Shown here: positions 1,722-59,576 of the stretch, piece after piece | Layout: each line of letters begins with the position of its first letter | How positions within the stretch are numbered: the first letter of the stretch is position 1 | From: Octopus vulgaris | Taxonomy: Eukaryota | Length of the DNA: 64,000 nt | Direction of reading: 5' to 3' | Assembly (NCBI GenBank): GCA_951406725.2 | Contig: OX597839.1 | Span: 14,384,001-14,448,000 of the forward strand | Made by a program: the position numbers and the translations under genes | Notes under the pieces: model-generated | Told to the model about the DNA's origin: nothing | What the model saw: only the letters and a program-made list of their open reading frames with translations | The model's database searches: none

Positions 1722-1954
1722 TTAAGTAGTATTAAGAGCTGAAGTGATCAAAGTGGTTATCATGTAAAGAAGAAATGGTGTGAAGAGATGATCTGGCAGC
1801 AAGCTTTGGGCACTAGAAATTCCATTACAAAATGACTCCTGGCAAAATCTTACACTCAAACCATTCATTGTAACCGTTTTGTTTGTAAATGATACGTTTT
1901 TAACAAAAGGGTATGTTCCGTCACTACAACTTCTGATGATTGCTTTAACTTCAC
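1722..1954 (-). CDS. Ly6/uPAR distal/alternative terminal exon (3b of gene 2): C-half plus GPI signal (absent from the ORF track)
   Basis: Acceptor cctcttctattctag|GT, phase 1. Encodes GEVKAIIRSCSDGTYPFVKNVSFTNKTVTMNGLSVRFCQESFCNGISSAQSLLPDHLFTPFLLYMITTLITSALNTT*, with IIRxC and CxxxFCN motifs and a hydrophobic tail. Confidence 0.82.
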
Positions 1955-3649
1955 CTAGAATAGAAGAGGGAAAAAAAGGAAAAGAGAAGAGAAACTAAAA
2001 AATATATAAAGTTATTGATTGCCAAAGATTGTAGGAGCTGGATTCAGGATCAGGGTTATGAGGGTGATGAAGGAAGGCATATGTTAGGGATCAAATTGAA
2101 GGTTGTGGTTATGATTTGAAATTAAAATTAAGATTAATGGTAGAAGTTTGGGTTAAAAGGGTTTAGTTTGACAAAGCATGAATGTCACAGAGAATGGGAA
2201 AAAGTACGTATGTAATATATACAATACATTACATATAACATAAATATATATTACATATATATATATATATATATATATATATATATACATACATACATAG
2301 ATGTATATGAGAAAAAAGAGAAAATAGAGATTAATCAGTTAATAATTATATTTATCAATTGCAAAAAGCAAACATAATCCCTGATAGCTGTTTTGATTCT
2401 GACTTTAAAGATTGTAATAGTAATTCAATAGTCAAAACTACTGAAAAGTTTGCAAGATGCAACGAAAATTTTAGGACAATAAAAATAAGTAAAAAGTGGA
2501 AATTTTACCGGTGAGTGTGTTACATAATAAGGCACAAAAAGAAAATGACTCTCCCCAAACACAACAGTATATATATATATATATATATATATATAAATAG
2601 GCTAAAGCTGTGAGGAAAGGCAAACAATTAGGCAAAGCTGGACAAAAACATTTAACTTCATCTAATTCAGTCTTAATTTAGCTACATAACAAATGGTAAA
2701 AATAGTAAAAAAAATAGTAAAAAATGCTGAAAGAATTTTTACCATTCATTATGTAGCTAAATTGAAATTGAATTAAACACCCTTTGCCTTTCCTCACTAC
2801 TTTAACCTACACCTTCTGACTCAAAGGGATGCCACTTTTGGACAAGTCAATCACACAACTACAATGTCCACTGTTGTTCAAACTGTAAATTTGGTGGCAC
2901 ACTTATTTGAGCACTCAGAATGCATACCTTTTAGTTTGAGTCATCCTGAGGAAAACACTTCATATCCTTTCTCTCTCTCTATGTATATATATATGTGTGT
3001 GTGTGTGTGGATATATGTATATCTATATCTATCCACGTCACTCTCTCACTATCTATATGCGTGTCTGTTTCTGGAACATCTTTCCTTCTGAACATGTATT
3101 ACAAATACAGCTCTGTTCTAGTTTTATCATTCTTTTTTATCTTTTATGTTTAGTTTCTTTTAAGAAAGTCTGAAAACCCTTCTTTGATTAATGCCATCGC
3201 TGTCACATCTAGAGTCCGCATGGACAATGAAATAACTGCTGGAATTTGAAATTTTCATCACTCTTACATTTCTGTTATTAGTCAGATGTCTCTTTTTGTT
3301 TATGATTGATAAATGTTATCAGTGAATTTATTTTAGCACTGTTATGTCAGGAGTTATATATCCATTATTAATCGACTATTTTTGTGGAAAAACCTGTAGA
3401 GTACAAGTGTGTTACATATGAATGTATTTTTCTATCTAGATTTTGCTGTGTGTTTTTGTGTGATTCAGTACATGGCAATTGTCTGTGTTCTAGTAATTAT
3501 AAAAGATGAAATCTTAGTACACTCACACTTTCAGTTAGTGTGACATCTGTGTGTATGTGTGTATACAAATGTATGTATGCTTGTGGGTATATATTGTATA
3601 TATATGAATGTTTGCATATACATACATATATTAATATATATTTTTTTAT

Positions 3650-4018
3650 TCTCTTCCTCGTTTTAGTCATTTGATTGTGCCATGCTGAAGCACCACCTTA
3701 AAGGTTTTTAGTCAAAGAAACTGACCCTAGGACTTATGCTTTGTAAGCCTAGTACTTATTCTATTGGTCTGTTTTGCTGAGCTGCAAATGTTATGGGAAG
3801 ATATACACACCAGCATCAGTTGTCAAGTGATGGTGGGGGCCAAACACAGACAGATAGACACACACACATATATATATATATGCGATAGGCTTCTTTCAGT
3901 TTTTGTCTACCAAATCCACTCACAAGGCTTTGGTTGGCCCAAGGCTATAGTAGAAGACACTTACCCAGAACCATGTGATTGGGAAGCAAGCATCTTACCA
4001 CACAGCCACATCTCCGCC
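3650..4018 (-). mobile_element. tRNA-derived SINE (same family as 60450-60843)
   Basis: Shares the ...caaatccactcacaaggc...cttaccacacagccac and gtacttattctat blocks with other copies in the window. Confidence 0.75.
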
Positions 4019-57800: not shown

Positions 57801-59533
57801 ATTTTAATCAAAACTCTGTACTTCAAAACCTAACGAAGCTCAACAAGGTCAAATACAGAATCATAGTAATTTAGGTGAAGCTTCATTATATTAATCACAA
57901 TAACTTAAGATGTCTAGAAAGACGAAAACGAAAACGGGAAAAACAATTAGGTACAGCAGAAAAACGAAGTACAGGACATGCTGCACAAGGAAGAATCCCC
58001 TTCATCAGCTGTCGCTAGCAGACATAGCGTGTTTCGAAGGCAAGACAGGACACGTCTGGTCATGCTAGGCCTTCCTACGAGAGAATTAAAATAAAATAAC
58101 CTCGTAGAGGGGTAAAACGAGCAAGAAAAAATATATATATATATGTATTTATTATGTATGTATGTATATGTATTTATGTATTATGAATGTATATATGTAC
58201 ATGTGTACATAAATATATGTTTATGATGTATGCAAGCATGTATGCATACATATATGCATGTATGCTTTTGTATGTATGTATCATTTGAAAATTTATACCA
58301 ACATTTGATATAAAACATTAGTGAGAAAAACAAAATATGATCTTTTACAACACGTTCCATGTCTTATGTTCAACATCCCCAAACTATTCTCACAATAGCA
58401 ATGAGCAACTGACTCACAATTACAATGAGCAACTGACTGGTTCTTGGAAACCCAGAACCAAAGGTATCATATTTCATAACTGGAAGAGTATATAATACCT
58501 GTATAATATCTAAATAAATAAGTAAATCTTTGAGTTGAAATACCTTTCTTTGTGAGGTTAATATTGTATATATTGTAAAAATATATATAATGTTTATTTA
58601 TTGGCCATTATGTCCAGGAGACAATATTTCTCTTGCTTCAAGAATTGACACCAAAATCTTATGACTGTACACCCAAGCCTGTTTCTGCTATAAGGTGCAG
58701 TGGACACTTAGTTGAGTGCCTGAATAACATCTGATAGCTTCAATGGAGCCTCAAATATGAAGTACATTTTATTTGGGAAAAGAATTAAAATTTTGCAATA
58801 TACAGGGAAGGCATTACCAGTGAAAAAGTCATTGCTGGTGTATGTCCAAGCGACAATTAGATTTACTAGTAAGCACATAAATGTGAAACAAGGGAGCAAA
58901 AAATAATACTAGACTACTGGAGGTAGAGTAATATGCTTTATTATTAAAGCTGCAAAAGCATCACAAAAATATCACGAAAAACTGTAACTCAGATTTTCAT
59001 GTTCCTGTTCGCTGGGCCATTGTGGTCAAGAATGAATGTGAGACTGAATAGCAGTTTTTTGTGATATCTTTGTGATGTTTTTTGCAGCTTTAATAATACT
59101 CTCTATAACTTTAAATACTTTCCTTCAAAAACTCATACATCAAAATCGACAGGAGCAACCGTCATCATCACCATTATTATTATTTATTATTATTATTATA
59201 AATCATATTCCACCAAGGTCAACTTTGCCTTTCATCCTTTTGGGGTCGATAAATTACATAGCAGTCAAATACTAGTCAAATACATGATTGACTTTTCCGA
59301 TCCCCTTGGAATTGAAAGAATTATTATCATTATTATTACTATTATTATTATTATTATTATTATTATTATTATTATTATTATTATTATTATTAGTTTACAA
59401 TGAAAATAAATTTTAAAAAGTGAAATGAAATTATATAGAAGAGAAATGTGGATCCATTGATTTAAGAGAGAAAGATATTCAAGTGAGTAATTGAGAAATT
59501 AACGAACATAGAAGCAATAAAGTACACAGTTAC

Positions 59534-59576
59534 CTGTTAGAAGAAAGGTAATGAGAACAGACCATGCAGGAACCAT
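59534..59576 (-). CDS. Ly6/uPAR (quiver-like) gene 1, coding exon 1: signal peptide MVPAWSVLITFLLT
   Basis: ATG at 59576, 14 mostly hydrophobic codons, then a phase-1 donor ACAG|GTAACT. Joins in frame to the 43926-44102 exon to give MVPAWSVLITFLLTVSTSNG-LSCYSC, a typical signal peptide plus cleavage site. The link across a 15.4-kb intron is inferred. Confidence 0.72.

Follow-up and report, generated by a model that had tools for sequence, protein, structure and literature searches.

Probable swapping of the second half of a three-finger domain by alternative last exons in two quiver/Ly6-like genes of Octopus vulgaris

A 64,000-nucleotide stretch of the Octopus vulgaris genome (contig OX597839.1, positions 14,384,001 to 14,448,000; hereafter the window) carries on its minus strand two quiver/Ly6-like genes, each with a signal-peptide exon (S1, S2), a single exon for the N-terminal half of the domain (N-half; N1, N2), and two last exons for its C-terminal half (C-half; proximal C1a and distal C1b in gene 1, proximal C2a and distal C2b in gene 2). 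Our analysis points, with good though incomplete confidence, to a system in which each gene joins its one N-half to either of two last exons and so would probably make two predicted glycosylphosphatidylinositol (GPI)-anchored three-finger proteins, the swap likely changing the membrane partner. A preliminary description of the sequence had proposed that the two products of each gene share the first half of the fold and exchange the second; this core reading is supported by a pair of RefSeq isoforms for gene 1 and by a contig that contains the distal junction of gene 2.

All eight exons of that description were confirmed at its coordinates (Table 1), together with the phase, product lengths, and motifs that it reported. 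AG acceptors precede all six N and C exons, GT donors follow all four signal and N exons, and the phase is 1 throughout; the joined frames give 163 and 160 amino acids (aa) for gene 1 and 162 and 154 aa for gene 2, and the C exons carry the motifs IR.C and C....CN and the sequons NIS/NTT/NTT/NKT. This layout of three coding exons (signal; N-half; C-half with anchor) separated by phase-1 introns is the rule in the LU superfamily (PMC6600238). Ten cysteines, with an asparagine after the tenth, are found in N1-C1a, N1-C1b, and N2-C2a; C2b has three cysteines, not five, the Cys7/Cys8 pair being absent. The alternative C-halves are 33–37% identical.

Both products of gene 1 are already in RefSeq, as unnamed models of the O. 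sinensis gene LOC118760862: S1-N1-C1a corresponds to isoform X1 (XP_036369732-4) and S1-N1-C1b to isoform X2 (XP_036369735), each with 0 mismatches. To our knowledge, RefSeq isoforms need RNA-seq support. The X1/X2 pair supports the proposal that alternative last exons swap the C-half of gene 1. The corresponding exons of the downstream duplicate of gene 1 (gene D), C1a′ and C1b′, also alternate, in isoforms X1 and X2 of O. sinensis LOC115224789. C1b is intact in gene D, with four amino-acid changes, and shares 81/86 residues with O. bimaculoides.

For gene 2, contigs from 4 of 24 listed sequencing runs (X1, X2, X9, and X20, the kinds of run being guesses) were compared with positions 1000-2200 of the window. 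In run X2, one contig covers 1480-1955 with 0 mismatches and then departs from the genome; the 30 loose letters shown for it are the end of N2, unlike the end of N2′ in the upstream duplicate (gene A), and thus give the predicted distal junction 15080->1954. Run X1 has no contig over C2b and is not counted as evidence. A retrocopy is an unlikely source of the spliced contig, because C2b has one match only in the genome search. The support for the proximal choice of gene 2 comes from an annotated paralog and an annotated ortholog, the N2-C2a join being present in the models of gene A in O. sinensis (P0009) and of O. bimaculoides (P0010). Joining of a constant exon to two or more homologous terminal exons is therefore found in the RefSeq pair of gene 1 and, for gene 2, in the distal junction of the contig. 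Records P0007 and P0008, in which parts of C exons are joined through internal sites, were treated as prediction artifacts, and P0058, with a C-half behind a non-Ly6 front, was set aside.

Several observations weigh against two functional products per gene. Both gene 1 junctions and N2->C2a rest on database gene models; the distal junction of gene 2 was seen in one of the four runs, and contigs of X9 and X20 pass straight from C2b into intron sequence without splicing. No S2-N2-C2b protein was found among the database records (one match in 21 candidates, a garbled model), nor an S2-N2-C2a protein of this gene copy among the O. sinensis protein matches. C2b is without the 7-8 disulfide and without a counterpart in the upstream duplicate, had no ortholog detected in the protein search, and forms a long branch in the tree. 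The C-halves differ as much as those of separate genes do, and the scores of the products against the Pfam family QVR (see below) lie under its gathering cutoff of 27.3 bits.

The distal exons might accordingly be remnants of gene duplicates from which the front exons have been lost, now spliced occasionally into products (above all N2-C2b) that have no function. Two unnamed, transcript-derived records fit such a whole-gene origin: P0011 and P0013 carry halves resembling C1a and C1b, and the N-half joined to each is a different one (support 90/83 and 89/84, both unstarred). We nevertheless consider this reading unlikely. An intact C1b is found in two copies and also in O. bimaculoides, and C2b, having lost both cysteines of one pair, has kept its frame, sequons, and hydrophobic tail. 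Absence of the 7-8 pair appears to be tolerated in this cluster, since a stand-alone neighboring gene (O. sinensis LOC115224715, O. bimaculoides LOC106879159), QVR-like and with eight cysteines, lacks the same pair in both species. Capture of orphan exons would, moreover, be an origin compatible with present function.

An exon census places the two genes in a larger cluster. N- and C-half profiles were built from a 51-sequence homolog alignment and searched against 264 kb (the window and 100 kb on each side). Five N exons score 25.5–55 bits (next independent match, 6.9; best reversed-sequence control, 3.0) and eight C exons 20.4–69.7 bits (next best, 9.6; control, 5.9); because both sets stand well clear of the next matches and the control, the surplus of three C exons is real. 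The profiles and a motif scan also bear out the earlier statement that 1955-9700 and 24805-34510 hold no further N-half exon, although a short signal exon could escape a homology search. An N-like tblastn match at 41633-41794 (E 6e-4) is not among the top profile matches, has no clear acceptor, and is attributed to chance. The locus could otherwise be read as four ordinary three-exon genes whose remaining signal and N exons went unnoticed or dropped out of the assembly; this can practically be dismissed, given that no hidden N exon was found, that the 64-kb window is free of N gaps, that the gene 1 layout recurs in its duplicate, and that the direct N2->C2b junction and the RefSeq isoform pairs exist.

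The cluster extends past the window on both sides. In transcription order it consists of the stand-alone gene, gene A, gene 1, gene 2, and gene D, and contains a tandemly duplicated unit (gene-2 type, gene-1 type) with colinear blocks ~85–96% identical; the window spans the boundary between two copies, with gene 1 closing one unit and gene 2 opening the following one. The layout of gene 1 (one signal, one N-half, and two C-half exons) is found again in gene D. C2b is absent from gene A: the C2b-bearing stretch has no counterpart there, and the profiles over 264 kb agree. Loss of C2b in gene A and its gain in gene 2 are indistinguishable. The preliminary description had taken the same 1+1+2 layout in both paralogs as an argument against accidental orphan exons. 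That layout is present in gene 1 and gene 2, but the argument is weaker than stated, because the distal exons are not shown to be counterparts (the tree is unresolved) and the duplicate of gene 2 lacks the distal exon; a stronger argument is that the gene 1 layout is kept in its own duplicate and its distal exon in O. bimaculoides. The N- and C-half trees are mostly unresolved (starred branches, 3/22 and 0/19), and the order of events was not read from them.

Table 1. Exons of genes 1 and 2 and neighboring genes of the cluster, in window coordinates
Feature	Position	Strand	Remarks
S1, gene 1 signal-peptide exon	59534..59576	-	Phase-1 donor; identical copy in downstream duplicate
N1, gene 1 N-half	43926..44102	-	Cys1-5; finger I and first strand of finger II
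C1a, gene 1 proximal last exon	34511..34782	-	Cys6-10, sequon NIS, hydrophobic tail with extra Cys
C1b, gene 1 distal last exon	24542..24804	-	Cys6-10, sequon NTT, GPI-type tail
S2, gene 2 signal-peptide exon	18987..19041	-	N-terminus of records P0001, P0002, P0004, P0008, P0010
N2, gene 2 N-half	15080..15256	-	Cys1-5; donor joined to C2b in contig
C2a, gene 2 proximal last exon	9701..9957	-	Cys6-10, sequon NTT, GPI-type tail
C2b, gene 2 distal last exon	1722..1954	-	Cys6, 9, 10 only; shortened finger III; GPI-type tail
Stand-alone gene (L020)	N ~93475, C 91261 (window-equivalent 90978-93475)	-	~27-30 kb past the window's right end
Gene A (gene-2 type)	S2′ 83288, N2′ 80753, C2a′ 76985	-	Upstream duplicate of gene 2
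Gene D (gene-1 type)	S1′ -4224, N1′ -8452, C1a′ -13014, C1b′ -19951	-	Downstream duplicate of gene 1

The products appear from their sequences to be QVR-like LU proteins, not curated members of QVR. The QVR profile (PF17064) gives 22.8 bits for the 163-aa form and 20.1 bits for the 160-aa form, with the whole 86-position profile aligned; QVR is detected at E<=0.01 in 35/51 aligned homologs, and the Atlas look-alikes are QVR clusters (0.94). Relatives occur across molluscs (gastropods, bivalves, and Argonauta), and all ten cysteine columns are filled in 48/51 alignment rows. Single exons gave no meaningful Pfam match, a search of Rfam gave none within the window, and the best PDB sequence match, LYPD6, is weak (E 0.47). 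The C-exon tails are hydrophobic (mean Kyte–Doolittle hydropathy 1.3–2.6 over 13 residues) and look like predicted GPI signals; that of C1a is atypical, with an extra cysteine and charged residues past the hydrophobic stretch, and its putative GPI signal is the least typical of the four.

An AlphaFold2 model of S1-N1-C1a (mean predicted local distance difference test [pLDDT] score 90.4) has a domain of ~112 residues with helical inserts and with hairpins as expected. Strands 64-72 and 75-84 meet at a turn at residue 74, which is the exon junction; in this confident model the junction would thus lie at the tip of finger II, which fits the placing of the LU intron at the loop 2 tip that a review gives as a rule (PMC6600238; literature is cited here from excerpts of the papers). 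With the consensus disulfides (1-5, 2-3, 4-6, 7-8, and 9-10), the only bond that crosses the junction is 4-6, and Cys6 is kept in all C exons. The swap would keep finger I and exchange one strand of finger II, finger III, and the anchor signal. It should be structurally cheap, because only bond 4-6 and one strand pair cross the junction, and halves no more than 33–37% identical may be exchangeable because only 4-6 crosses and Cys6 is kept.

The choice of last exon would most likely be made by competition between proximal splicing and polyadenylation on the one hand and continued transcription on the other: if the proximal C exon is defined and its poly(A) site used, the N donor would be spliced to it; if transcription runs on, to the distal C exon. 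AATAAA or ATTAAA is present downstream of each C exon, at about background density. A search for docking/selector pairing of the PGRP-LC type found no reverse-complement match common to the gene 1 duplicates, a search that short or G-U-rich pairings would escape; the strong reverse-complement matches at these duplicates are repeat-like and copy-specific. At the 5′ ends, acceptor-like sites on the minus strand at ~19082 (40 nt before the S2 ATG) and ~59770 (~190 nt before the S1 ATG) are shared by both duplicates and point to putative upstream non-coding exons before both start codons; three transcripts are listed in O. sinensis for the same 163-aa protein. N1 spliced to the acceptor-like site before S2 would stop after 83 aa.

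Read-through splicing from gene 1 into gene 2 had been put forward as a way to raise the products to six combinations, with N1 also joined to the C exons of gene 2. All N/C joins are in frame. Free combination is nonetheless very improbable: no join of N1 to C2a or C2b occurs among the protein database matches examined (3, 5, and 1 proteins), the sole C2b junction seen uses N2, and read-through from gene 1 would reach the N2 acceptor first, giving N-N-C chains of 217/209 aa.

In RefSeq models it is the N2 donor that joins the N exon of the next gene, ~23.5 kb downstream and outside the window. O. sinensis LOC115224789 X1 and X2 are S2-N2-N1′-C1a′ and S2-N2-N1′-C1b′, each differing from this genome by one mismatch, and O. 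bimaculoides LOC106879162 X2 is built in the same way, S2-N2-N1′-C (198/223 identical); the read-through keeps both N-halves and leaves out the last exons of the upstream gene and the signal exon of the downstream one. Shorter gene 2 and gene D isoforms are absent from those RefSeq genes, which we presume may reflect the Gnomon filter on short alternative variants. On the strength of these in-frame models from two species, S2-N2-C2a-C2b-S1-N1-C1a-C1b could be viewed as one combinatorial locus in which signal-N2-N1-C forms are functional, the spare N-half, with its odd cysteine, dimerizing or competing for the C-half. This seems improbable. AlphaFold2 folds only N1′+C1a′ (pLDDT 88–96 per block, against 46–71 for the N2 half), in a model biased by an alignment that put homologs on the second N-half; the number of cysteines in the mature read-through chain is odd (15 in P0001 and P0004); the N2->N1 model of one species may have guided the annotation of the other; and the O. 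sinensis annotation treats the upstream unit as two distinct genes. We read the signal-N-N-C chimera as an apparently ordinary read-through by-product, for which annotation in two species leaves room for function.

Divergence between the gene 1 duplicates is uneven: identity holds over tracts of 500–600 bp next to others that differ by 5–17%. N1 differs at 16/177 nt and the domain part of C1a at 23/182, against 3.4% in the flanks (p 0.0016 and 3.5e-6). C1b, N2, S1, and S2 show no excess divergence between duplicates, and C2a is marginal (p 0.042). Positive selection on N1 and C1a is not shown by these figures: synonymous sites are equally high (proportion of synonymous differences [pS] 0.147 and 0.082; overall ratio of nonsynonymous to synonymous proportions [pN/pS] ~0.76), and the divergence around both exons runs on into the upstream introns. 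Tracts of 500–800 bp at 34006-34600 (C1a tail and 3′ untranslated region) and 43100-43900 (intron after N1) are near-identical to the downstream duplicate and adjoin tracts of 5–17% difference, a pattern that likely reflects a patchwork of gene conversion between duplicates.

Mobile elements and repeats lie among the exons. An 811-aa open frame with reverse-transcriptase-like motifs (48225-50660, plus strand) lies antisense in the first intron of gene 1; we take it to be an RTE-type long interspersed nuclear element (LINE), and it is part of the reason why this intron is 15.4 kb long versus 4.2 kb in the duplicate. In O. bimaculoides record P0006, the odd N-terminus is similar to the C-terminal end of the same element. 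A transposase-resembling fragment (5989-6390, plus strand), presumably of the mariner type, lies in the intron between C2a and C2b, and a (TA)n array of ~1.2 kb (21951-23194) separates the distal exon of gene 1 from the start of gene 2. Elsewhere in the genome, G000:C5:49957042-50083940 contains, in a span of 130 kb, three matches to the QVR N-half, one of them with stop codons, and is a putative second, more canonical quiver-like cluster; the genome-wide QVR and C-exon searches were too insensitive to judge the layout at other Ly6 loci.

As to function, loop 2 alone of Drosophila SLEEPLESS is needed for binding Shaker and nicotinic acetylcholine receptors, according to the excerpt of PMC4735452, and therefore the swap most likely serves to alter the partner or the affinity. 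By analogy, the most likely function, proposed tentatively, is tuning of a nicotinic-type receptor or a Shaker-type channel. A broader scheme is rather doubtful: half-domain cassette splicing would rebuild the target-binding finger and give a different specificity with each last exon, 8-cysteine and conserved one-and-a-half-domain forms included, so that one unit could provide up to six regulated surface modulators. Ly6/three-finger families are described, in the excerpts of PMC6600238 and PMC4839075, as diversifying by whole-gene duplication. Here a single gene would provide natural chimeras that have the first half in common, are 33–37% identical in the second, and divide at the finger II tip: an experiment, already set up by nature, on which of the two halves determines the choice of partner. 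The cluster also offers natural single-domain LU proteins without the 7-8 disulfide, a bond thought to be needed for folding. The interest is bounded by there being two choices per gene and by a splicing design known from other families. A search of the open-licence literature turned up no report of these loci or of alternative exons for half-domains in Ly6 genes, and the locus identifiers are not in three supplements of PMC9712504.

In domain architecture the octopus proteins resemble Drosophila QUIVER/SLEEPLESS and mollusc QVR-like Ly6 proteins (PF17064; PMC4735452), with a signal, a ten-cysteine LU-type domain, and a hydrophobic tail. Unlike curated QVR members they score below the cutoff, and the modeled domain of ~112 residues with helical inserts exceeds the consensus of 60–90 residues. 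Among the 74/81 proteins that could be split into halves, a shared N-half with differing C-halves occurs in Octopus records only, in a clustered set in which isoforms from elsewhere could be hidden. N2-C2b and the stand-alone neighbor have the 8-cysteine pattern without Cys7/8 of uPAR domain I and its relatives. LU domains without the 7-8 disulfide are a known rare variant, and its removal destabilizes single LU domains; in the excerpted text they are mostly first domains of multi-domain proteins, whereas the octopus forms would be single-domain (PMC6600238).

Adjacent Ly6 genes are also found in LYNX1/SLURP2, once taken for splice isoforms; these are separate transcription units, each with its own domain, and are no precedent for a half-domain swap (PMC4839075). 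The N2->N1′ chimeras resemble transcription-induced chimeras such as Csnk2b-Ly6g5b, in which the upstream last and downstream first coding exons are dropped; unlike that case, both octopus partners are Ly6 paralogs, and a one-and-a-half-domain protein results (PMC3626593, as excerpted). The closest parallels in splicing design are the 3′ variable regions of Drosophila PGRP-LC, Pip, and CG42235, in which constant 5′ exons are joined to one of several duplicated 3′ cassettes, coupled to 3′-end formation (PMC6191721, in part). The octopus genes differ from PGRP-LC in having two choices each and in showing no conserved docking/selector pairing in our search, and PGRP-LC exchanges whole recognition domains, whereas the octopus cut passes through one small disulfide-bonded domain. 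The octopus layout is a two-choice 3′ variable region of the PGRP-LC/Pip type, drawn through an LU domain.

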